A stretch of DNA of 64,000 nt from positions 89,254 through 153,253 of the forward strand of contig JAPLKZ010000013.1 of assembly GCA_026387835.1 (NCBI GenBank). The letters are read 5' to 3'. Shown here piece by piece: positions 7,624 to 31,171 of this stretch. Origin of the DNA: Candidatus Saganbacteria bacterium. Its GTDB lineage: Bacteria > Margulisbacteria > WOR-1 > JAKLHX01. The position numbers and the translations under genes are program-made. The notes below the pieces were generated by a model that saw only the letters and a program-made list of their open reading frames with translations, was not told the DNA's origin and ran no database searches. Every line of letters begins with the position of its first letter. Within the stretch, counting starts at the first letter, position 1.

Positions 7624-8799
7624 ATGTATAACTTGCCAGATAAAAACGGATATTTCGGGAAATACGGAGGGACATTTGTACCTGAAACACTGATGCCGTG
7701 CGTCGAAGAACTCAAAGAAGCATATTACTCGTTAAAACATGACCAAAGCCTTAAAAAAGAAATAGGTCATTATCTCAGGGATTTTGCAGGCAGACCGACC
7801 CCTCTTTATCTTGCACAAAACCTTTCAAGAAAACACGGTTTCAAGATCTATCTGAAAAGGGAAGACCTATGCCACACCGGAGCGCACAAGATAAATAATT
7901 GCATCGGGCAGATCCTTCTCGCAAGAAAAATGGGAAAGAAAAGGATAATAGCAGAGACCGGGGCCGGCCAGCACGGCGTCGCGACAGCGACTGTTGCGGC
8001 TTTGTTCGGTCTGAAATGCATCGTCTATATGGGCTCTGAGGATATCAGGCGGCAGGCTTTGAACGTTTACAGGATGGAGCTTCTCGGCGCGGAGGTAAGG
8101 CCGGTAAAGACGGGCAGCAGGACTTTAAAAGAGGCGATAAACGAAGCGCTCCGCGACTGGATGGCGAACGTGAAAGACACTTATTATCTCATCGGTTCAT
8201 GCGTCGGCCCGCATCCATATCCGATGATGGTCAGGGATTTCCAGAAAGTGATAGGGGAGGAAACAAAAAAACAGGTCAAAGCCGCGGAGGACAGACTACC
8301 TGATATCGCAGCCGCGTGCGTCGGCGGCGGCAGCAATTCCATCGGGATGTTCTATCCGTTCATCGACGACGCTTCAGTCAGGCTGGTCGGACTTGAGGCC
8401 GGCGGCAGGAGCATGAAGATCGGCGAAAACGGGGCGGCACTCGCAAAAGGAAAGACCGGGATACTCCACGGGTCAAAAAGCTATGTCCTGCAGACGGCAG
8501 ACGGTCAGATCGCGGGTACGCATTCTATCTCAGCGGGGCTGGACTATCCGGGCGTCGGGCCCGAGCACGCGTATTTGAAAGACTGCGGAAGAGTGAAATA
8601 TGAAAGTATCAGTGATAAAGAAGCCGCGGCCGCTTTTGAATATCTGGCAAAAGAAGAGGGAATAATCCCCGCGCTTGAATCCGCCCACGCGGTAGCTTAC
8701 CTGAAAAAATTGTCCGGGAAACTATCAAAAGATAAGATAGTCGTGATATGCCTGTCGGGACGCGGCGATAAAGATATCGATATGACAAGGAAAAGATGA
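7624..8799 (+). CDS. trpB: tryptophan synthase beta chain
   Basis: 391 aa; [12 protein letters not shown]-lysine motif, [15 protein letters not shown]. Confidence 0.9.
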
Positions 8800-8809
8800 A
8801 TGCCGTCCT

Positions 8810-10261
8810 CTAAACGGTCCTTCTAAACTTATCCAGCCCCTGGATCTTAAGCAAATTGTTGACCATTCCCACGGCATCCTTTTTCAGGTCCGATACGGAA
8901 GATGCCAATTCGATGTAATCTTTTTTGTAGATCAGATCAGAGCCGGGGATGGAGGCAAAAACATTATAATAATCCTTGGTGACGGGGTTGTTCTTTACCG
9001 TTTCGGCGAAGTGTCTTATTGAAGCCGCGGAATCGCCCGCTTCATGGTACACTTCGCTGATCGCATACCTCGGCTCCTTGATCTCCATATTTATCATCAC
9101 GCGCATACCGGGCACACAAACGCGGACAGCCGGGATGTCCAATTTGAGATGGGTCTTGTCGATGACAACGGTCTTGTATCCGGATTTTTCCAGTATCCCC
9201 ATAATATAGAGTATCTCTTCCTTTATATCAGGCTTGCACGCGCTGGGGACCTCATCCATCGTGACGCTTTTTTTACTTTTCAGGAGCATCTCCGTGTTAT
9301 ATAAAGGAAGGAAACCCGTATGTTTTTTAGGCAGCGCGGACATGACCTCTTTCCAGTTGACATTCAGCTCTTCCTGAGAAACGCACATAAGGGAAAAACC
9401 CTCAAAATATTCTGCCAGGGCCCTGATCAGCGCTTTTTGCGGGTCCGTGCTAGCCCCCTGGCCGACCCCCTGATAAGTAAGTTTGTCTTTGTCCTGTTCG
9501 CGGATGCCGTAAGCTATGAAGGTCGGCACTTTGAAATCAAAAGAGATGTCCTTTATTGTGAATTTGATCCCGTTCTTCTGAGAATTTTCCAGAACTCTTG
9601 TCACAAGAAGATTATTGATGCTTTCAAGCTTCAGGTCATTTCCCGGTTCCATGTCCATGAAAAGACGGCAGATGTTCTCCCTTTCTATGACCTCGCAAAG
9701 GGCCTGCAGTATAGCCTCTTCCATCGTGTTGCCGGCTGCGAGCCCGTTGGACCCGACCACCATGTTATGCCAGTTCACCGGATAATAGAACGGTTTCCGG
9801 TCGTTAAGGCACGTGCCCAGGACCCATTTAAGAGGTATGTCCTTTATTTCCCTGAGCAGTTCATCGCGGTCTTTCAGGTCGATGAAATTGCAGAGGAAAT
9901 ATGATTCGTCAACTGTCTGGATATCCCCCTTTTTGATCTCGTTAAAGCTTTTCAGGCAATATCCCTCATAATGTTCATAATCAAAATGCAGCCACGAATA
10001 CCGTTCCGCGAATTCCATGACCGCGCTGGCCTTTGATTGTTCCGGAGTGAGGCCCTTGCCGCTGGTCTTAAGTTTGTCGCTTATGCTTGAAAAAGAATAA
10101 GCGCCTTCAATGGCGTCTTTCCTGGGTTCGATCCTGAAACTTGACAGGTCAAGCATTGTTTCCAGATGTTTTAAGGCGTTTTCTATTGTCGAGGAAGGGT
10201 CCGTGACCTTGTCCTGGTCAAGCGTGTATTTTTTCGGGCAACTTTTAAGTTCGATCACCAT
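8810..10261 (-). CDS. YcaO-domain protein (stand-alone)
   Basis: 483 aa; YcaO-like motifs (GKGLTPEQSKASAVMEFAERYSW, GSNGLAAGNTMEEAILQALCEVIERE); no TfuA or precursor gene adjacent. Confidence 0.65.
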   Translation of the reverse strand: MVIELKSCPKKYTLDQDKVTDPSSTIENALKHLETMLDLSSFRIEPRKDAIEGAYSFSSISDKLKTSGKGLTPEQSKASAVMEFAERYSWLHFDYEHYEGYCLKSFNEIKKGDIQTVDESYFLCNFIDLKDRDELLREIKDIPLKWVLGTCLNDRKPFYYPVNWHNMVVGSNGLAAGNTMEEAILQALCEVIERENICRLFMDMEPGNDLKLESINNLLVTRVLENSQKNGIKFTIKDISFDFKVPTFIAYGIREQDKDKLTYQGVGQGASTDPQKALIRALAEYFEGFSLMCVSQEELNVNWKEVMSALPKKHTGFLPLYNTEMLLKSKKSVTMDEVPSACKPDIKEEILYIMGILEKSGYKTVVIDKTHLKLDIPAVRVCVPGMRVMINMEIKEPRYAISEVYHEAGDSAASIRHFAETVKNNPVTKDYYNVFASIPGSDLIYKKDYIELASSVSDLKKDAVGMVNNLLKIQGLDKFRRTV

Positions 10262-10305
10262 AGGTCATTTCAATTATATATGTTCGCTGTCTTTATTCAA
10301 GAGGA

Positions 10306-11010
10306 TCAAACGGTCCCGGATAGATAAGCTTTCCTTGTCTTTTCAGGGAACTTTTCTATCGCGTACCTCAGCATGGTTCGAGGCATCTTCTTGTAATGCC
10401 CCTTTAAAAAATCCTCTTCTGTCTTTTGTGAGCATCTTTTTCCCGTCTCACGAAGCATCCAGCCGACGGCTTTGTGTATGAGGTCGTGCCCGTCATTTAA
10501 AAGGACCTTTGCGACCTTCAGGGTTTCTTTCGGATCGCCTCTTTTAATATAGTTAAAGGTCGATAATATCGAGATCCTTCTTTCCCAGAGAGAGCTTGAT
10601 CGCGCAAATTTATACAGGAGGCTTTTATCCTTGTCAGAAAGATATTCACCTACTATCTGTTCCGCAGTAAGGTCTATCAGGTCCCAGTTGTTGATGAACC
10701 TCGTGTTATTAATGTATATATTAAATATCTTCTGCTTTTCGGCCTTGTCTGCCTTGCTATACTTCAAAACCAATATCAAAAGAGTGGTTAACCTTTCCTC
10801 ATGATATTTGGAATGAAGAAGCTTTATGCAGTCGGGCAACGTGATATCTCTGAACTTTTTTACAATGTTTCTGACATCCGGCACAACGATACCAAGGAAA
10901 ACGTCTCCTTCCCCGTACTGCCCGGGCCCGGTCTTGAAGAACCCTGCCAGTATCTTTGCCTTTTGCGGGGAAGCGCAGTCGCGAAGGTCTTTTTTCAGTT
11001 TTGAAAGCAT
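10306..11010 (-). CDS. DNA alkylation repair protein, AlkD-like HEAT-repeat glycosylase family
   Basis: 235 aa from ATG at 11010; the longer ORF to 11382 would overlap tRNA-Ser so was trimmed; family-typical helical repeat sequence. Confidence 0.65.
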   Translation of the reverse strand: MLSKLKKDLRDCASPQKAKILAGFFKTGPGQYGEGDVFLGIVVPDVRNIVKKFRDITLPDCIKLLHSKYHEERLTTLLILVLKYSKADKAEKQKIFNIYINNTRFINNWDLIDLTAEQIVGEYLSDKDKSLLYKFARSSSLWERRISILSTFNYIKRGDPKETLKVAKVLLNDGHDLIHKAVGWMLRETGKRCSQKTEEDFLKGHYKKMPRTMLRYAIEKFPEKTRKAYLSGTV

Positions 11011-11030
11011 GATGAAATTATTGTTAAAAT

Positions 11031-11117
11031 CGGAAGGAGCAGGATTTGAACCTGCGGTGCGCTTGCACGCACAGTAGTTTTCAAGACTACCGCCATAAAC
11101 CACTCGGCCATCCTTCC
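11031..11117 (-). tRNA. tRNA-Ser (anticodon TGA), type II with long variable arm
   Basis: GGAAGGATGGCCGAGTGG...CTTGAAA anticodon loop...TTCAAATCC T-loop; 7-bp acceptor stem GGAAGGA/TCCTTCC; no encoded CCA. Confidence 0.85.
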
Positions 11118-11262
11118 ATGTCCCGCTCGCTTGCCCCGAGCCTGTCGAGGGGGCCACCTCTCCGTAAAATATTGTATCACGGCTGTAGGTGCGTAGGATA
11201 TCAGCACGACCTCCGGCAAATGACCAAATAATCCCGTTCCCGCGACATTTTTTGGAAAAATC

Positions 11263-11307
11263 AAAATTGAGTGAAATTTCAAAAAATACCTGTCGAGAAG
11301 AATATGG
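11263..11307 (+). promoter_or_regulatory. conserved upstream element (copy 2 of 3), AAAATTGAGTGAAATT-N15-CGAGAA-N2-ATATGG
   Basis: Same spacing as copies at 3515 and 28626; about 135 nt upstream of ATG 11442. Confidence 0.35.
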
Positions 11308-11441
11308 CAAGAAATAACAGGCATGTAAAAAATACATCGCCGGTGAACAAAGAAAAAACTGAAAGGAGGACTGGAAATACAAAAAAATTGAAGTTTCATA
11401 AATGTCCGGGGGCGAAAATATTTAAAGTAAGGAGATAACAG

Positions 11442-13827: not shown

Positions 13828-13913
13828 ATAGGTCCGCCTTGCTTGATTTGACCTGCCTTTTGCAATACAATAGAAATAAAGAAGCATTAATTATTCCGGA
13901 GGGGGTGAGTTTG

Positions 13914-14132
13914 ATGAAGAAAATGATAGCGATGATCGCCGTTTTGATGTTCGTTGCGGTTGTTTATACCGGGTGCGCACCGTCAACAGAAAAAAAGACC
14001 GAGACAACAACAACGACAACAATGTCAACAACAGAAACTACAGTGGTAACAAAGGAAGCAGCAGCCAAACCGGCAGCAAAAACAGGAAAACATTTAAGGC
14101 ACAAGAAACACAGCAAACACAGAATGAAATAA
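13914..14132 (+). CDS. small Thr-rich lipoprotein (72 aa)
   Basis: Signal peptide MKKMIAMIAVLMFVAVVYTGC with lipobox-like YTGC; RBS ggaggggg upstream; basic C-terminus. Confidence 0.5.
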   Translation: MKKMIAMIAVLMFVAVVYTGCAPSTEKKTETTTTTTMSTTETTVVTKEAAAKPAAKTGKHLRHKKHSKHRMK

Positions 14133-16093: not shown

Positions 16094-16474
16094 ATGGGCG
16101 CAAAACTTATCCATGCCGAATTGAGCTATAAGTTGGTCGGGGTTCTTTACAAAGTATATAACGAGCTTGGCGGCGGGTATCAGGAAAAAATATATCAATC
16201 TGCGGTCAGAAAAGAGTTGAAAAAAAGCGGGATAAATTTTACCGAACAATTGGGAATAGATCTGTTATATGACGACAAAAAAATAGGCAGATATTTTCTT
16301 GATTTTGTCATTGAGAACAAAATCGTGCTGGAGCTCAAGGTTGTCCCAAGATTTTCACCCCGCGACATAATGCAGGTGCTCGGTTATCTTAAACAGACCG
16401 GACTGGAGCTCGGCATTCTTGCCAGCATGAACAGAAATGGCATTATTATGAAACGTATACTGAAAGGAAATTAG
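16094..16474 (+). CDS. GxxExxY family protein (PD-(D/E)XK-like small protein)
   Basis: 126 aa; family-typical N-terminus ...HAELSYKLVGVLYKVYNELGGGYQEKIYQ...; RBS aggagg. Confidence 0.75.
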   Translation: MGAKLIHAELSYKLVGVLYKVYNELGGGYQEKIYQSAVRKELKKSGINFTEQLGIDLLYDDKKIGRYFLDFVIENKIVLELKVVPRFSPRDIMQVLGYLKQTGLELGILASMNRNGIIMKRILKGN

Positions 16475-18871: not shown

Positions 18872-18973
18872 GATCTTGGCCTTTTGTATCCTTGAATCCA
18901 ATTATATACTAATAATGGGAGGATAAACTCAAAACTCCGGTTTTGGCTATGTTATAATTATTTTTGTATACCT

Positions 18974-19046
18974 GAGCCACTAGCTCATCTGGTAGAGCAC
19001 TTGCCTTTTAAGCAAGTGGTGCCGCGTTCGAGTCGCGGGTGGCTCA
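18974..19046 (+). tRNA. tRNA-Lys (anticodon TTT)
   Basis: Acceptor GAGCCAC/GTGGCTC, anticodon loop CTTTTAA, T-loop TTCGAGT. Confidence 0.85.
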
Positions 19047-19052
19047 AATTAT

Positions 19053-19128
19053 GGGCCCGTGGTGTAGCCTGGTCTAACACGCATGCCTGTCACGCATGAG
19101 ATCGAGGGTTCAAATCCCTTCGGGCCCG
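19053..19128 (+). tRNA. tRNA-Asp (anticodon GTC)
   Basis: Acceptor GGGCCCG/CGGGCCC, anticodon loop CTGTCAC, T-loop TTCAAAT. Confidence 0.85.
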
Positions 19129-19134
19129 TTTGTT

Positions 19135-19207
19135 GGCGGGTTAGCTCAGTTGGTAGAGCAGTAGCCTGAAAAGCTATGTGTCCTCAGTTCAATTCTGAGA
19201 CCCGCCA
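19135..19207 (+). tRNA. tRNA-Phe (anticodon GAA)
   Basis: Acceptor GGCGGGT/ACCCGCC, anticodon loop CTGAAAA, T-loop TTCAATT. Confidence 0.85.
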
Positions 19208-19259
19208 AATTATCTTTTTTGCTGTGGGCTTGCGCCGAGCGAGTGAAGCGAGTCGAGGC

Positions 19260-19332
19260 GCCGACGTAGCTCAGCTGGTAGAGCAGCTGTTTCGTAAACA
19301 GCAGGTCGTCAGTTCAATCCTGACCGTCGGCT
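19260..19332 (+). tRNA. tRNA-Thr (anticodon CGT)
   Basis: Acceptor GCCGACG/CGTCGGC, anticodon loop TTCGTAA, T-loop TTCAATC. Confidence 0.85.
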
Positions 19333-19376
19333 TTAATAAGTTTTATGTTAGAATATGCTATCTGAAAGGAAGAAAT

Positions 19377-19751
19377 ATGTCAAAAAAAATACTTGTGATC
19401 GATGATGAAAATGATGTGGTGGAGATACTCAAGACGATCCTTGAGCATGAAAAATATGAAGTGATAAGCAGTTACGGCGGTGAAGACGGGCTTAAAAAAG
19501 CGATAGCATCTAAGCCCGACCTCATAATCACGGACATAATGATGCCGGGGATGGACGGTTTCGAGTTCGTGCAAAAGCTTAAAGAGAACATGGAGACGTT
19601 CAATATCCCCGTGATCATGCTGACCGCAAAGGACCAGGGAGTTGACAGGGAAAAAGGCCTGGCGCTCGGCGTGATAGCTTACATAGTAAAACTGTTCGAT
19701 CTTGAAGAGCTTATATCCACGGTAAAAGACGCAGTCGAAAAGAAAAAATGA
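19377..19751 (+). CDS. single-domain response regulator (CheY-like receiver)
   Basis: 124 aa from ATG 19377 with RBS gaaaggaag; receiver motifs (ILVIDDE, phospho-acceptor Asp in IITDIMMPGMDG, Lys in AYIVKLF); the longer ORF from 19176 would read through tRNA genes. Confidence 0.8.
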   Translation: MSKKILVIDDENDVVEILKTILEHEKYEVISSYGGEDGLKKAIASKPDLIITDIMMPGMDGFEFVQKLKENMETFNIPVIMLTAKDQGVDREKGLALGVIAYIVKLFDLEELISTVKDAVEKKK

Positions 19752-19763
19752 ATGAGCCGAAGC

Positions 19764-19836
19764 GCTGGCGTAGCTCAGCTGGTAGAGCAGCGGTTTTGTA
19801 AACCGCAGGTCGTCAGTTCAATCCTGACCGCCAGCT
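19764..19836 (+). tRNA. tRNA-Thr (anticodon TGT)
   Basis: Acceptor GCTGGCG/CGCCAGC, anticodon loop TTTGTAA, T-loop TTCAATC. Confidence 0.85.
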
Positions 19837-19873
19837 TTTTTAAAGTCCAAGCTTAATCCTTACAGTTAAGAAT

Positions 19874-20527
19874 ATGAAAATCCATACCATTATTGTCGGC
19901 CCGATACAAACGAACTGCTCTATCATATTTGATGAAGGTTCAAAAGAGGGCATCATAATAGATCCCGGAGAAGAAGCCGAAAAAATACTGTCTTTTGTCA
20001 ACGGCAATTCACTGAAGATCACATCGATAATCGCGACCCACGGCCATTTCGACCATGTGACAGCCGTGTCGGAACTGAAAGAAAAGCTAAAGGCACCTTT
20101 CTCTGTACATAAAAAAGATGCGTTTTTATTGTCGGAAGCGGTTGCTCCTTTCGCGGCGATGCTGGGTTTTAAGGCCGGACGGGCAAAGATCGACAGGCTT
20201 TTGAAGGACCATGACTTGATAGAGTTCAAAAATAACCAGTTCGAGGTCATACACACTCCGGGCCATACGCAGGGTTCGGTCTGTTTCTATAATAGAAAGG
20301 GAAACGTCCTTTTTTCAGGCGACACGCTTTTCAAGGGAGATGTCGGAAGGACGGACCTTCCCGGAGGGTCTACCCGCCAGATAACGCAGTCCGTAAAGAA
20401 AAGGCTTTTCGTGTTGCCTGATGAAACGTTTGTAATACCGGGGCACGGTCAGACAACAAATATCTTGAGCGAGAAGAACGATCCTTATTTAAAAGGGCTG
20501 ATATACGGAGAGAACAGTGGGCAGTAA
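19874..20527 (+). CDS. MBL-fold metallo-hydrolase
   Basis: 217 aa; metal-binding motif ATHGHFDH and downstream His/Asp ligands. Confidence 0.75.
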   Translation: MKIHTIIVGPIQTNCSIIFDEGSKEGIIIDPGEEAEKILSFVNGNSLKITSIIATHGHFDHVTAVSELKEKLKAPFSVHKKDAFLLSEAVAPFAAMLGFKAGRAKIDRLLKDHDLIEFKNNQFEVIHTPGHTQGSVCFYNRKGNVLFSGDTLFKGDVGRTDLPGGSTRQITQSVKKRLFVLPDETFVIPGHGQTTNILSEKNDPYLKGLIYGENSGQ

Positions 20528-21473
20528 GAACATCTTCTTCTTTTACGGTGACGAAGATTATTTGATGGAAGAAGAGATCGACAGGCTGAAAAGCATGATG
20601 ACAACAGAAACCGTCAACATAGCAGTGGAGCGCTTCACGCCGGACGACTGTGATCCCATGAACCTTTTACAGGTCATATTTACTCCTTCGCTCTTTCAAA
20701 ACGAACGTTTGATCGTGGTGTCGGGATACGGCGAAGAAGATTACCTGGAAATATTAAACGGCGCGGAAAACATCCCTTCGGGCATCATATTGGTCATCAC
20801 AGAGAAAAAAACCGATAAAAGGACAAAGTTCTTCAAGGAAGTCCAGAAAAGAGCTGTAGTGAAAGAGTTCAAGGCTTTTGCGCAGTGGGAGACGGCAAAG
20901 ATTATCTCCCGGATCATCTCAAGATCATCGGCTTCTAGCAAAAAGATGGATGAAAAAACAGCTGCTTTGCTGAACGAGGTGTCAGGGCCTTCGCTCAGGC
21001 AGCTCGCTTCCGAGATCGAGAAACTCTCCACTTACGCCGGAGGAAGAGACAGTATAACTTCAGAGGACGTGAGGCGCCTCGCGGTATCGGGAGAGCTCGG
21101 GGCTTTTGCCGTAGAGAACGCGCTGGCTTCAAGAGATATCAAAGGCGCGTTAAGTGCTTTGACGGTCCTGATGAGGTCAAAAGAACGGGCCGAAGCGATA
21201 CTGGGAAGGATCGCTTCAAGGATCAGGACCTATCTGATGATAAAAAGCCTGCAAAGCGCGGGAAGATCAAGGGACGAGATCATAAAGAGGATGGGGATGA
21301 ACCCTTATTATTTTGAAAGATGCGAAGACGGCGCGTCGTCTTACTGCTTGGACGAACTTTGCGCGGCGGTCAACAAGCTGTCAAAAGCCGATCTCGACCT
21401 TAAGACCACAATGAAGCCCGCGGATGTCGTCATGCAGCTGCTGATCACGGATATACTGGCAAAAGGGGACTGA
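20517..21473 (+). CDS. holA: DNA polymerase III delta subunit
   Basis: 318 aa; delta-subunit-like sequence; identification by overall resemblance. Confidence 0.65.
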   Translation: MGSKNIFFFYGDEDYLMEEEIDRLKSMMTTETVNIAVERFTPDDCDPMNLLQVIFTPSLFQNERLIVVSGYGEEDYLEILNGAENIPSGIILVITEKKTDKRTKFFKEVQKRAVVKEFKAFAQWETAKIISRIISRSSASSKKMDEKTAALLNEVSGPSLRQLASEIEKLSTYAGGRDSITSEDVRRLAVSGELGAFAVENALASRDIKGALSALTVLMRSKERAEAILGRIASRIRTYLMIKSLQSAGRSRDEIIKRMGMNPYYFERCEDGASSYCLDELCAAVNKLSKADLDLKTTMKPADVVMQLLITDILAKGD

Positions 21474-21477
21474 ACAC

Positions 21478-23166
21478 ATGGAAAACAAAAGGGCCGTATA
21501 TCTATTAATGGCATTTATCTTCTTTTTTCTCTGCATCGCGGCAAAACTGTCGTACCTGCAGTTGTTCAGGCACGCCGATTTTGAAGAAATGTCGCTTGAT
21601 CAGCACATGAGGATAATCGAACTGTCACCGGACAGGGGGGATATCTGCGACAGGAACGGAAATATCCTGGCCACATCGGTCGACAGGTGGTCGGTCTATG
21701 TAAGGCCGAAAGCGATAAAGGACAAGGGCGCCATAATAAGGCAATTGTCGGAGATATTTCCCGAAGAAAAAGCTTTGATATCGGCAAAGATGAACGGGAC
21801 GGCCAATTTCTGGCTTAAAAGAAAAGCCGATAAAATATTTTCAGATAAAGTCCGGGCTTTAGGATGCACGGGGATAGACATAACGATGGAAAAGAAAAGG
21901 ATCTATCCCAAAGGGAAGCTTGCCTCGCAGCTTATAGGGTTTGCCGGGCTCGACAATCAGGGATTATCCGGGATAGAGATAGGATTTGAAGACAGTCTGA
22001 AGGGAAAAGCGGGCAGGCTGCTTTTTGAAAAAGATATGGCGGGAAGGCAGATCGCTACCGGTAGTTTCAGACAGCTTGAGATGCCGGAAGAAGGCATGAA
22101 CGTCTATCTCACGATCGATGAAGCGATCCAGCACATCGCGCAGGTGTCATTGAAAGAAGCCGTAACGGGCAGCGGGGCTGTTTCCGGTTCGATCATTGTT
22201 GTCGATGTCAGGACCGGGGAAATACTGGCGATAGCCGGTTATCCGGATTTTGACCCGAACGATTATTCAAAATATCCGGACGAGAGCAGAAAACTGCCTC
22301 CCGTGACGAATATCTATGAACCGGGCTCTACTTTCAAGATAATAACGGCCTGCGCCGGAATAGAAGAAAATGTCGTAAGTCCGGATTCTGTCATCCCGAC
22401 GCCGGCGCAGATAAAAGTCGAGGGAATAAAAGTGAACAATTCCCATCCCGTAAGATATTACGGAAAAAAATCCAAGACTTTTGCTGACGTGATCGCCGAA
22501 TCCATCAACACCGGTACTTCATATGTCGGACTAAAGCTGGGGTTTGGCAGGTTCTATAAATACATAACCGCTTTTGGCTTCGGTACAAAGACCGGGATAG
22601 ATTATCCCGGTGAAGTGAGAGGTTTTGTCAGATCACCGGAAAACCGGGAAAGCGGGGATGTCGTCACATACACTTTCGGGCAATCGATCGCCGTCACGCC
22701 TATCCAGCTCGTCTATGCTATCGCCGCGATAGCCAATGATGGTATCAGGGTAAAGCCAAAGATAATAAAGAGGATCGAAAGTCCCGATAAGAACGTGATC
22801 CGCTCGGACGTCCCGGAGGAATTAGGCAGGGTCATCTCAAAAGAGACCGTAAAAAAAGTAAATGAACTTATGAAAGGCGTCGTTTACATGGACCACGGGA
22901 CAGGGCACAAGGCAAAGATGGCGCAGTTTACGGTCGCCGCAAAGAGCGGCACCGCACAAATATCCGTCCCCGGGAAAGGATATCTCAAGGGCCGGTTCGT
23001 AGCTTCTTTCGTGGGATTCATCCCTGCGGACAGACCGAGGATCGCGATGCTGATAATAATAAACAAGCCGAGCACGTCGAACTGGGGGGCGGTCGTCGCG
23101 GCGCCGGTATTTAAAGAAGTCGGAGAATTTGCCCTGAGATATTTGAACGTAGCTCCTGACCTGTGA
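21478..23166 (+). CDS. penicillin-binding protein (class B transpeptidase, FtsI/PBP2-like)
   Basis: 562 aa; N-terminal membrane anchor, active-site STFK and KSGT motifs. Confidence 0.85.
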   Translation: MENKRAVYLLMAFIFFFLCIAAKLSYLQLFRHADFEEMSLDQHMRIIELSPDRGDICDRNGNILATSVDRWSVYVRPKAIKDKGAIIRQLSEIFPEEKALISAKMNGTANFWLKRKADKIFSDKVRALGCTGIDITMEKKRIYPKGKLASQLIGFAGLDNQGLSGIEIGFEDSLKGKAGRLLFEKDMAGRQIATGSFRQLEMPEEGMNVYLTIDEAIQHIAQVSLKEAVTGSGAVSGSIIVVDVRTGEILAIAGYPDFDPNDYSKYPDESRKLPPVTNIYEPGSTFKIITACAGIEENVVSPDSVIPTPAQIKVEGIKVNNSHPVRYYGKKSKTFADVIAESINTGTSYVGLKLGFGRFYKYITAFGFGTKTGIDYPGEVRGFVRSPENRESGDVVTYTFGQSIAVTPIQLVYAIAAIANDGIRVKPKIIKRIESPDKNVIRSDVPEELGRVISKETVKKVNELMKGVVYMDHGTGHKAKMAQFTVAAKSGTAQISVPGKGYLKGRFVASFVGFIPADRPRIAMLIIINKPSTSNWGAVVAAPVFKEVGEFALRYLNVAPDL

Positions 23167-28625: not shown

Positions 28626-28670
28626 AAAATTCAGTGAAATTCCCAATATTTCCATTCGATACATATATAG
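28626..28670 (+). promoter_or_regulatory. conserved upstream element (copy 3 of 3), AAAATTCAGTGAAATT-N15-CGATAC-N2-ATATAG
   Basis: Same architecture as 3515-3558; ends 26 nt upstream of ATG 28697. Confidence 0.4.
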
Positions 28671-28696
28671 ATGAAAATACCGAAAGGAGAAAAGTG

Positions 28697-29359
28697 ATGA
28701 ATAATATTAGAGGGATCATGCGTGGATGGACAAACGAAGGAAGACCGGCAACATGGGCGAATGTAAGAAATGCAATAGCGAATCAGACCGCGTGTTCTGT
28801 GGTTGTATCATCAGGATTGGGGCCGATCTTATCGCTTACAAGGCGGAGGGTGGAAGAAGGCCCCGTACAAAAACTTGCGCGGACTGCAACCCCTGCTTTT
28901 GATGTGGCAAAGTTCATGGAAGCCCACAATTTTATCGATGTTCCCGAAAGACCTTTTAGAATAATGGCAGACGAGCTTTCGGTAGGGCTATTCAACCGAT
29001 TTGTTAAAAGCACACAATACGAAATTATAGGCCATAATGCGGATTCTTTAAAAGGAGTTCTTGCCGGAACAGATCGACGCAGTATAGCAACATATTTAAG
29101 CTGGAATGACGGCACGGCTTATGCTAAATGGCTGAGCGCAGTAACTGGCAAAAGCATTATGCTTCCAACAGAGAAGAAATGGTTAGACGCCGTTGACAAA
29201 GTCCGAGATCAACTATCTGGGAACAATTGGGAATGGACGAAAACCCCATATTCCAGCAACGCCTTTGTTCTCCATCACCTGAACAATTCGCTCCGTTTCA
29301 ACTGCATCCCTGGGAATCGTTTTAACTTCAATGCGGTCCGTCTTGTTGAGGACAAATAA
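28697..29359 (+). CDS. DGR target-type protein with FGE/C-type-lectin-like fold and Asn-rich C-terminal VR-like segment
   Basis: Motifs ...LSWNDGTAYAKWLS...LPTEKKWLDAV...GNNWEWTKTP...NSLRFNCIPGNRFNFNAVRLV; RBS aaaggagaaaag; GTG at 28634 is an alternative upstream start. Confidence 0.65.
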   Translation: MNNIRGIMRGWTNEGRPATWANVRNAIANQTACSVVVSSGLGPILSLTRRRVEEGPVQKLARTATPAFDVAKFMEAHNFIDVPERPFRIMADELSVGLFNRFVKSTQYEIIGHNADSLKGVLAGTDRRSIATYLSWNDGTAYAKWLSAVTGKSIMLPTEKKWLDAVDKVRDQLSGNNWEWTKTPYSSNAFVLHHLNNSLRFNCIPGNRFNFNAVRLVEDK

Positions 29360-29429
29360 ATTATCCTTTGCTCTTTTATTCTTTTACTCTTTGAGTGGGA
29401 TGGGGTGGCCAGGAGTTTGAGGGAAATAA

Positions 29430-29768
29430 ATGGAAGGTCCAAAAGTTATAACCTTGGCCTATGATTTCATAAAATGGGCCATTCCTCATATTGTGAAGTT
29501 TCCAAGAAATCAAAGATACACGCTTGGGGAACGGGTTGAAAACAAACTATTCTTCCTTCTGGAACTTCTCATTGAAGCTCAGTATTCTAAAGACAAAGCT
29601 AATGTGCTTAAGAAAGCGAACATGGAAATTGAGCAGACACGATATTTATTCCGTTTATGCCATGACTTGCGGCTGATCAATTTAAAAACCTACGAATTGT
29701 CTTCAAGGCAGTTGATGGGAATTGGGGCGCAGGTCGGGGGATGGATCAAGCAGCAAAATACCAAATGA
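29430..29768 (+). CDS. avd: DGR accessory variability determinant (four-helix-bundle, 23S rRNA IVS protein family)
   Basis: 112 aa; family-typical N-terminus (LAYDFIKWAIPHIVKFPRNQRYTLGERVENKLF); stop overlaps the RT start (ATGA). Confidence 0.75.
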   Translation: MEGPKVITLAYDFIKWAIPHIVKFPRNQRYTLGERVENKLFFLLELLIEAQYSKDKANVLKKANMEIEQTRYLFRLCHDLRLINLKTYELSSRQLMGIGAQVGGWIKQQNTK

Positions 29769-30397
29769 AGCGCCACGGTTATTTATTCGATAAGATCACT
29801 TCTTTTGAAAATCTCTTAAAAGCCTCACGAAAAGCTCAGAGGGGTAAACGCTTCAAGAATTCCACGGCCGAATTTAACTTAAAAATAGAGTCCGAACTGC
29901 TGGAACTGCAAAGAGAACTGCAAGAGGCAACTTATCGAATAGGCAGCTATAAACAATTCTACATTTATGACCCAAAGAAACGGTTAATCAACGCCTTGTC
30001 TTACAGAGACAGGGTTGCTCAGCATGCTTTATGCAATGTTATCGAGCCGATATTCGATAACGGATTAATTTATGATAGTTACGCCTGCAGGAAAGATAAA
30101 GGCAGCCATAGGGCTGTCAGCCGGTTTGCGATGTATTGCCGCAAGAATAAATATGCCTTGAAGTGCGACATTAAAAGCTATTTTGCCTCAATAGATCACG
30201 GCCTCTTGTTTGACATGATCATGAAAAAAATTAAAGACCCGGATGTAATACAGCTGATTAACTTGATCCTTGATTCAACCCCTTCTCCCGGAATTCCAAT
30301 CGGGAATTTGGCCAGCCAAATATTCGCCAATCTTTATCTTAACGGACTTGACCATTATTTAAAGCAACCTTCGAGATTGAAATCGACCCCCGCTTAG
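29765..30397 (+). pseudogene. DGR-type reverse transcriptase, 3-prime truncated (N-terminal about 210 aa only)
   Basis: N-terminal RT motifs (MKRHGYLFDKI, YIYDPKKRLINALSYRDRVAQHALCNVIEPIF, DSYACRKDKGSHRAV, QIFANLYLNGLDHY); ORF stops before the YxDD active-site region. Confidence 0.75.
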
Positions 30398-30428
30398 CAG
30401 TCCGCAGCAAGCAGTCTGCAAGCTGCGG
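30394..30428 (+). repeat. TTAGCAG...GCAGCAAGCAGTC...CTGCGG motif (copy 2) at the RT breakpoint
   Basis: Overlaps the stop of the truncated RT ORF; related to copies 1 and 3. Confidence 0.5.
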
Positions 30429-30438
30429 TCCAACTCCC

Positions 30439-31038
30439 TCAAACAAACCCAAACTTCCCCTTCGGTTTGCTTTCGTCTTTCAATATCTTGTTGATCGCGC
30501 TGAAGAGACTGATGATGTCCTGGTCGTGCCGCCCGATCTTGTGCTCTATCTCTGACAGCTTCTGGATCAACTCTTTGTTGAATGTAAGCAACTGCCTAAT
30601 TTTTACGAATGCTCTCATTATGGCTATATTGACCTGGATGGCCCGTTTGCTTGTAAGTACAGAGGAAAGCATGGCTATTCCTTGTCCTGTAAATGCGTAT
30701 GGAAGGTATTTGATATGTCGTCCGCGCATGGAATTTGGGTCATGCTTGTGGTCGAATTTCTTTAAGGTTGCAAAATGCAACCTTAAACAATCCAATTCTT
30801 CCCATGTGAGTTGGAACATAAAATCTTTGGGAAATCTTGAAATATTTCTATTTACTTGCTGTTTTAATCTTTTGATGCTTTCCTCATATAATGGAGCCAG
30901 GTCGGCATCCAACATGACTTTCTGGCCTCTTAAAAGGAAGATACTGGACTCTATTGATTCGGCGGAAATAATCATACTGTTGGATTTTTCAACATCTTGG
31001 TCTACGGATGCCTTTTTGTTACGCACACTTTTTGGCAT
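30439..31038 (-). CDS. ORF6N-domain protein (KilA-N-like DNA-binding family common in mobile elements)
   Basis: 199 aa; ...RGQKVMLDADLAPLYEESIKRLKQQVNRNISRFPKDFMFQLT...KYLPYAFTGQGIAMLSSVL. Confidence 0.75.
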   Translation of the reverse strand: MPKSVRNKKASVDQDVEKSNSMIISAESIESSIFLLRGQKVMLDADLAPLYEESIKRLKQQVNRNISRFPKDFMFQLTWEELDCLRLHFATLKKFDHKHDPNSMRGRHIKYLPYAFTGQGIAMLSSVLTSKRAIQVNIAIMRAFVKIRQLLTFNKELIQKLSEIEHKIGRHDQDIISLFSAINKILKDESKPKGKFGFV

Positions 31039-31140
31039 AAATATCCTCTCTTTCCCGGATCAAGGCTTAAAGCCAGCAGCTTACAAATGGTCAATGAGCA
31101 ATTTATCCGCCACGACAAAGGCTCTATCGCTAGGGTTCTA

Positions 31141-31171
31141 TTAGCAGCAAGCAGTCCGCAGACTGCGGAAC
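31141..31171 (+). repeat. TTAGCAGCAAGCAGTCCGCAGACTGCGG motif (copy 3)
   Basis: Flanks the ORF6N gene on the side opposite copy 2; contains palindrome CCGCAGACTGCGG. Confidence 0.5.

Follow-up and report, generated by a model that had tools for sequence, protein, structure and literature searches.

YcaO enzymes act on backbone amides: a nucleophile attacks the amide, ATP phosphorylates the oxyanion of the resulting hemiorthoamide, and phosphate is then eliminated (PMC13063428, PMC5589413). The methanogen proteins MJ1094 (PDB 6pe3/6peu) and M. kandleri YcaO (6ci7) form thioamides independently of TfuA, and the E. coli enzyme (EcYcaO; 4q84-4q86), formerly annotated as a ‘RimO/S12 accessory factor’, is the thioamidase of Met82 in ribosomal uL16 (PMC13063428). 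The cyanobactin-type heterocyclases LynD and TruD and the ATP-dependent peptidase MusD are ~780 aa long, carry an E1-like/RRE domain fused at the N-terminus and are encoded next to precursor genes. Here we describe a YcaO gene in a 64-kb stretch of contig JAPLKZ010000013.1 (hereafter the window), part of a bacterial metagenome-assembled genome (MAG) from Saganbacteria, where it lies beside a gene of the AlkD family and the 3' end of a tRNA-Ser gene. AlkD homologues are documented as self-resistance glycosylases in Streptomyces clusters (PMC8626424), and a first-pass annotation had pointed to this role and to the tRNA 3' end as a classic site of island integration. We consider it probable instead that AlkD and YcaO are two unrelated, vertically inherited chromosomal genes that are neighbours by chance, forming neither an island nor a toxin/self-resistance module.

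The physical arrangement was confirmed as first annotated, i.e., a 483-aa YcaO protein, an AlkD-family gene upstream of it, the tRNA-Ser 3' end next to AlkD, and trpB convergent with YcaO. The gap between AlkD and YcaO is exactly 44 bp (10262-10305), the ATG of AlkD lies 19 bp downstream of the tRNA-Ser 3' end, and the stop codons of trpB (8799) and YcaO (8810) face each other across a 10-bp spacer. The tRNA encodes no CCA and is on the same strand as AlkD and YcaO. Three independent assemblies of this population (L165-L167) show the identical gene order.

In the relatives examined, the pairing does not recur. We gathered 164 loci encoding YcaO relatives by searching species-representative genomes and JGI metagenomes and by exact-protein look-ups; tblastn with the window AlkD detected no AlkD homologue within 10 kb of YcaO in any of them (0/164), and none was found in the gene tables of three further YcaO-relative loci. 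Conversely, no YcaO was present near AlkD relatives at 69% identity in Margulisiibacteriota loci. We take the adjacency to be lineage-specific and, most likely, fortuitous. A module in which YcaO helps to make a DNA-alkylating or genotoxic peptide and AlkD protects the producer, like YtkR2 and C10R5 of the yatakemycin and CC-1065 clusters, would agree with the self-resistance role known from Streptomyces (PMC8626424) and with two co-directional genes so close that they are possibly co-transcribed. The absence of the pairing from both sets of relatives makes such a module extremely unlikely, as does the local gene content: within ~10 kb of AlkD/YcaO there are no biosynthetic genes, whether for a PKS, an NRPS, a precursor, an exporter or anything else of this kind. 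AlkD itself comes from a huge, housekeeping-like clade, and a promoter-like site separates it from YcaO. Moreover, we know of no YcaO product that alkylates DNA.

The promoter-like site is a sigma-70-like match (TTGAAT-16 nt-TATAAT) with 11 nt between the end of its -10 element and the ATG of YcaO, set against 4.0 ± 2.0 sites of this pattern expected by chance in the 3.1-kb region. From this site YcaO could be transcribed on its own, as a near-leaderless mRNA, and AlkD might be transcribed by read-through from the tRNA-Ser promoter.

The 234-aa sequence of the AlkD-family protein matches PF08713 (DNA_alkylation) over model positions 1-213 of 213 (E 2e-59; 201 bits vs a threshold of 21). The catalytic triad of B. 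cereus AlkD is Trp109/Asp113/Trp187 (PMC8626424), and alignment to the B. cereus AlkD structures places W109, D113 and W184 of the window protein at these positions. It shares the HEAT-like repeat fold family and the triad with B. cereus AlkD and with YtkR2 of the yatakemycin cluster, although it is only distantly similar in sequence to the former (26 bits); unlike YtkR2, it does not sit in a biosynthetic cluster and belongs to a very large clade spread across uncultured phyla. More than 8000 homologues were found in databases, with 58-69% identity among the 119 best listed, and they come from Margulisiibacteriota, Parcubacteria, Omnitrophica and others. Loci encoding AlkD relatives contain sensor-kinase and tRNA genes as neighbours. 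Judged by its sequence, the protein is an ordinary and very widespread repair gene product of PF08713, the AlkD/AlkC family of HEAT-like repeat alkylpurine glycosylases. It would act in general DNA-alkylation repair, excising cationic alkylpurines without base flipping via Trp109/Asp113/Trp184.

We likewise consider it very unlikely that a genomic island inserted at the tRNA-Ser 3' end brought in the AlkD-YcaO segment as cargo. The position of the segment 19 bp from the tRNA 3' end, variation in gene content beside tRNA-Ser among relatives and a somewhat low overall GC content of AlkD (z -1.9) would suit an island. However, the 22-mer at the tRNA-Ser 3' end occurs once in the 64 kb, in the tRNA itself, with up to three mismatches allowed (≤3), and a direct-repeat search over positions 1-24000 returned no family involving tRNA-Ser; there is thus no repeat resembling an attachment site. 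Pfam annotation covered the open reading frames (ORFs) between 1695 and 23166, hereafter the annotated neighbours, and contained no integrase, recombinase or mobility gene; downstream of YcaO follow trpB, leuS, GH16 and thrS. Composition is native in both genes, i.e., GC z -0.55 and codon-usage distance z -1.1 for YcaO, and third-position GC (GC3) z -0.63 and codon distance z +0.31 for AlkD, and the GC profile is flat.

Comparison with divergent relatives also points to old synteny rather than island cargo. The loci L083 and L087 contain a YcaO that is 46% identical to that of the window. tRNA-Ser(tga)/tRNA-Ser(cga) are found within 850 bp of this gene, tRNA-Asp at a distance of 30 bp and tRNA-Lys/Phe at 2 kb. 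This cluster runs on via tRNA-Thr/Thr to an MBL hydrolase (46% identical), holA (30%) and PBP2 (40%), in the same way as a block found further along the window (18973-23166). The AlkD homologues of L168-L170 are located ~120 bp from tRNA-Ser(gct), and those of L168 and L169 additionally ~2.3-2.6 kb from tRNA-Ser(tga). Since YcaO and AlkD are each beside tRNA-Ser in divergent relatives, each appears to be anciently linked to serine tRNA genes, and their presence near tRNA-Ser in these more distant relatives argues against a recent insertion. The arrangement in the window looks like local reshuffling inside a conserved chromosomal neighbourhood.

The YcaO protein comprises an N-terminal region of ~66 aa, a YcaO domain (residues 67-387) and a clade-specific helical C-terminal tail (~398-482). 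The domain matches PF02624 over its full length (E 1.9e-56; 192 bits vs 25.7). An alignment-based AlphaFold2 (AF2) model was obtained with a predicted local distance difference test score (pLDDT) of 94 and a predicted TM-score (pTM) of 0.93. Foldseek matched this model to LynD, MusD, MJ1094 and EcYcaO at E 1e-20 to 1e-24 and probability 1.00, and additionally to TruD and the M. kandleri YcaO. Across 50 clade members, the motifs SGKGLT...S79xxxE83xxE86R87, SNGLAAGN and C-E190-V-I-E193-R194-E are invariant, including S79/E83/E86/R87 (Sx3ExxER) and E190/E193/R194 (ExxER), and they align with those of LynD/TruD/MJ1094. These correspond to the ATP/Mg2+ motif reportedly defined by Dunbar in 2014. 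E193 aligns with E202 of EcYcaO, the residue altered in the E202A variant that was co-expressed as a comparison against the wild-type enzyme (PMC13063428). The ATP/Mg2+ site and the YcaO fold are intact, and the enzyme looks active.

The C-terminal tail of ~95 aa forms six helices that are confidently placed in the full-length AF2 model. Residues 388-483 gave no meaningful Pfam match, TPR included, even at E values up to 10, and a single-sequence AF2 model of the isolated tail reached a pLDDT of 45, too low for a fold search. A proline-rich C-terminus of the PxPxP type is reportedly a feature of azoline cyclodehydratases (Burkhart et al. 2017). The window protein ends in ...NLLKIQGLDKFRRTV, without proline, and so has no such end. 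Its isoelectric point (pI) is 5.7; the clade has a median of 6.6 and a range of 5.15-9.5.

Subfamily placement relied on curated hidden Markov model (HMM) cut-offs as a proxy for a phylogeny with characterised YcaOs. The protein passed the generic YcaO-domain model TIGR00702 (104.8 bits; cut-off 75.65) and missed those for the McrA-glycine thioamidation YcaO, methanogen marker 1 (TIGR03266; 115 bits, cut-off 365), the SagD-type cyclodehydratase (TIGR03604; 105.5 bits, cut-off 219), the E. coli ‘S12 accessory factor’ YcaO (NF040716; 60 bits, cut-off 700) and OsmC-YcaO (31 bits, cut-off 900). By these scores it is a member of the YcaO superfamily outside the E. coli-type, McrA-type and SagD-type subfamilies. 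The first-pass annotation had named a RimO-associated YcaO in a conserved gene pair as the contrary case; the enzyme is not of that type and the pair is not conserved, and the interpretation that the annotation had preferred fails on the other evidence given above. Against solved structures, a profile of the clade scored 137 bits with MJ1094, 130-135 bits with TruD/MusD/LynD and 62 bits with EcYcaO.

Each described system shares part of its features with the window protein. The MJ1094/M. kandleri YcaO group provides both the best PDB profile match and the best NCBIfam model (TIGR03266). Like the window YcaO, these enzymes are stand-alone, with no fused E1-like/RRE domain and no adjoining TfuA, and MJ1094 shares its SGKGxT...ExxER and SNGxAAGN...ExxER motifs. 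In contrast, the window YcaO comes from a bacterial host in which no methyl-coenzyme M reductase (MCR) is expected, carries the extra helical tail, and is only ~21-22% identical to the methanogen proteins in structural alignment; no TfuA occurs among the annotated neighbours. EcYcaO resembles it in being an orphan without a nearby small ORF or TfuA, in possessing a helical region after the YcaO domain and in its catalytic Glu, E202, the counterpart of E193. It differs in having a 150-aa TPR dimerisation domain in place of a tail without a TPR match, and, unlike EcYcaO-type enzymes, the window YcaO evolves faster than neighbouring housekeeping genes. LynD, TruD and MusD are the top Foldseek matches (E ~1e-24; TM ~0.65 on the query) and share the same ATP-binding motifs, but the window YcaO has neither their length nor their fused domain or adjoining precursor genes. 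Of the features that accompany SagD-type enzymes, no E1-like/Ocin-ThiF/RRE partner and no Cys/Ser/Thr-rich precursor gene was found within ~10 kb.

That the YcaO is stand-alone and not an obvious locus for a ribosomally made peptide with post-translational modifications (RiPP), as first annotated, is borne out by the surroundings. The annotated neighbours include no gene for TfuA, an E1/ThiF-like protein, LanM or any other RiPP function, and no TfuA, E1-like or precursor gene lies within ~10 kb. The 44-bp gap and the 10-bp spacer between YcaO and trpB are too short for any ORF. For 16 clade loci and the window, every stop-to-stop segment of 18 aa or more in the 2 kb around YcaO was included in a comparison; only YcaO termini, translations of tRNA-Ser and hisA fragments matched across these loci, leaving no precursor candidate, and no small ORF of the flanks is conserved. 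A 134-aa ORF that overlaps tRNA-Ser and the AlkD start is a gene call in public assemblies, has no Pfam match and is almost certainly spurious. Another small ORF, further upstream, begins with a hydrophobic segment that ends in Cys and, by eye, resembles that of a lipoprotein, and continues with a Thr-rich tract, TETTTTTTMSTTETTVVT, and a basic tail; it has no significant Pfam match and is not conserved near YcaO in other loci.

The window protein belongs to a small, uncharacterised clade of stand-alone enzymes from Margulisiibacteriota/Saganbacteria and Desulfobacterota. Judged by HMM score, it appears to consist of a few dozen clusters at 50% identity (>~300 bits, among 10,638 YcaO-like proteins) in a set of 1.84 billion representatives; at 90% identity there are ~65 clusters, 35-58% identical to the window YcaO. 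The nearest relatives beyond the clade, ~30% identical, are acidic Desulfobacterota proteins of ~580 aa in which YcaO is fused to C-terminal TPR repeats. These TPR-fused proteins (P0071-P0116; loci L008-L080 and L092-L164) form a large family with a median pI of 4.9, acidic like EcYcaO. Their assignment to the E. coli type was rejected, at 48-58 bits vs the NF040716 cut-off of 700, and they are candidates for another protein-targeting YcaO group.

Genomic contexts within the clade are diverse, and no family save YcaO is common to more than a lineage-restricted subset of its loci. The window and L083/L087 represent a tRNA-rich housekeeping region. In L002 and L082, YcaO is convergent with hisA-hisH-ROK-groES/EL, and in L081 and L171 it stands at the end of a KR-ACP-KS-KS' operon followed by the same his block; elsewhere guaA/guaB, transketolase, peptidase M1, methyltransferases and other genes adjoin it. 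The informative context is that of class II lanthipeptide clusters in Desulfobacterales MAGs (L003/L173 and L005), whose YcaOs are of the same clade and 44-47% identical to that of the window; members outside these clusters have unrelated housekeeping neighbours. L003/L173 encode a LanM (729 bits), two precursors that have Nif11 leaders, GG/GA cleavage motifs and cores containing Cys/Ser/Thr, an NHLP-type ABC exporter and a radical-SAM protein, and L005 (6325-11212) encodes a LanM together with a protein of unknown function that is shared with L003/L173. tblastn with the Nif11 precursors, LanM, radical-SAM protein, FAD oxidase and 364/368-aa protein from L003/L005 gave no match in the 64-kb window.

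Some of these loci deserve description in their own right. The precursors of L003 (5238-17773) and L173 are 143-144 aa long, with cores such as LESFICLSIFGFGVACAAVSVAGGAFYGTCERGFNAVNSW, and the clusters also encode a FAD amine-oxidase/cyclase-like protein; the conserved protein shared by L003/L173 and L005 is 364-368 aa long and matches no Pfam or NCBIfam model. In the Margulisiibacteriota loci L081 (5363-9440) and L171 (4504-8434), an apparent operon with overlapping stop and start codons ends in YcaO, in the order short-chain dehydrogenase (ketoreductase, KR), acyl carrier protein (ACP), ketosynthase (KS), truncated ketosynthase (KS') and YcaO, then a glycosyltransferase, an unusual context for a YcaO. 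In addition, hisA, with hisH or a probable hisB judged by sequence, adjoins YcaO in two phyla and two YcaO clades with differing geometry: it is downstream and convergent in L002, L081, L082, L091 and L171, and 1-4 kb upstream and divergent in ~20 loci of TPR-fused YcaOs (e.g., L027, L051, L151). As the hisA/hisH adjacency is absent from the window, we dropped it as a functional clue and note it only as a curiosity; it may reflect lineage synteny by coincidence or some weak link in function.

In syntenic comparisons, YcaO diverges faster than its housekeeping neighbours. Between L082 and L081, identity is 52% for YcaO vs 73-87% for hisA, hisH, ROK and GroEL, and between L082 and L002 it is 71% vs 79-93% for the syntenic housekeeping neighbours.

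By analogy with characterised enzymes, the most likely role of the window YcaO is activation of a backbone amide. Attack of a nucleophile on this amide would give a hemiorthoamide, which the enzyme would O-phosphorylate with ATP, and the substrate would be gene-encoded at another place in the genome. We tentatively and slightly favour a ribosomal peptide as this substrate, because clade members occur in LanM/Nif11 clusters, the gene evolves faster than the flanking housekeeping genes and the pI is ordinary. A cellular protein, the main alternative, seems a less likely substrate, on which we would expect, with some doubt, thioamidation from free sulfide as in the TfuA-less methanogens.

A more specific proposal, that YcaO is a housekeeping enzyme whose target, a conserved cellular protein with a gene at another site, receives a backbone thioamide (or a different modification derived from the amide) with environmental sulfide and without TfuA, agrees with the genomic record, where neither the window nor most clade members show a precursor or partner close by and YcaO occupies a conserved chromosomal position. 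The ranking of TIGR03266 and of the TfuA-independent MJ1094 as top NCBIfam and PDB matches also agrees with it, and clade hosts come from lineages and habitats generally regarded as anaerobic, in which sulfide would be available. More protein substrates of YcaOs are said to await discovery, and the lack of a nearby small ORF points that way (PMC13063428). We nonetheless judge this housekeeping role unlikely. All thioamidation equivalog cut-offs are missed widely (115 vs 365 bits for the best), and clade members reside inside LanM/Nif11 RiPP clusters. The uL16-thioamidating YcaOs are strongly acidic, with a pI of ~4.4 that is complementary to basic uL16 (PMC13063428), unlike the window enzyme at 5.7. 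Furthermore, the low conservation of YcaO relative to its neighbours is the opposite of what is reported for enzymes with a static protein substrate (PMC13063428).

Several points weigh against our account of two independent genes and of the enzyme's substrate. Gene order around tRNA-Ser varies between relatives, and tRNA-flanked regions are rearrangement hot spots; an ancient insertion beside tRNA-Ser is conceivable. AlkD and YcaO are co-directional and merely 44 bp apart, so co-transcription is possible, and the promoter in the gap is a pattern match only. The thioamide-forming MJ1094 and the cyanobactin-type TruD/MusD/LynD are nearly tied as best profile matches, so that the product may be an azoline, a thioamide or an amidine. 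Finally, the substrate assignment is tentative, since a precursor, TfuA/ThiS or LanM gene may lie beyond the 64 kb of the window.

YcaOs are now known to modify whole proteins besides RiPP peptides, making orphan clades a place to look for new substrates and chemistries. If the modification, most plausibly a sulfide-derived thioamide, proved to be placed on a conserved cellular protein, YcaOs would gain a third protein target besides McrA and ribosomal uL16, this time in relatives of Cyanobacteria, and this reading would cover the Saganbacteria YcaO together with the orphan majority of the clade. The LanM/Nif11-linked Desulfobacterales members offer a tractable entry point for the function of the clade. 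The remaining lead is modest, given a small clade in which most members have no recognisable partner or substrate gene.

Features of the window discussed in the text, with positions numbered from its first nucleotide.
Feature	Position	Strand	Evidence or remark
trpB (tryptophan synthase beta)	7624-8799	+	ORF and PF00291 PALP match
Short terminator-like stem-loop	8803-8817	-	Overlaps YcaO stop codon, between convergent YcaO and trpB; pattern match only
YcaO gene	8810-10261	-	ORF, 483 aa
Sigma-70-like promoter match	10300-10273	-	10/12 consensus positions; consensus match only
AlkD-family gene	10306-11010	-	ORF, 234 aa
134-aa ORF	10995-11399	-	Almost certainly a spurious call
tRNA-Ser (anticodon UGA)	11030-11118	-	ARAGORN; Rfam RF00005, 60.4 bits
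Small lipoprotein-like ORF	13839-14132	+	Lipoprotein-like by eye
PDDEXK_3 gene	16094-16474		Nuclease superfamily, 126 aa
tRNA-Lys/Asp/Phe/Thr/Thr cluster, then MBL hydrolase, holA, PBP2	18973-23166	+	Synteny anchor; block also beside YcaO orthologue in L083/L087
Probable diversity-generating retroelement	28634-31144		
241-aa ORF	28634-29359		Upstream of bAvd-like gene
bAvd-like gene	29430-29768		PF22296, E 6.8e-18
Reverse-transcriptase ORF	29741-30397		RVT_1, E 2.2e-9; 218 aa
ORF following reverse transcriptase	30467-31144		Continuation or separate gene

The annotated neighbours encode thrS, GH16, leuS, trpB, a GFO/IDH/MocA oxidoreductase, a GH130 phosphorylase, PDDEXK_3, GT4, MBL, holA and PBP2, and three ORFs between 1695 and 23166 are without a Pfam match. 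The trpB gene is solitary between leuS and YcaO, with no adjoining trpA or other trp genes. Of 37 window ORFs whose composition was compared, the PDDEXK_3 gene deviates most (GC z -3.15; codon distance z +2.9). It is located between the sugar-metabolism genes and a glycosyltransferase and is possibly a recently acquired element.

Further along the window is a probable diversity-generating retroelement. Its bAvd-like gene overlaps the start of the reverse-transcriptase ORF, which is rather short at 218 aa; the ORF that follows may either continue it or be a gene of its own. Upstream of the bAvd-like gene, the 241-aa ORF, whose GC3 is strongly atypical (z -3.0), is a candidate for the variable target gene.

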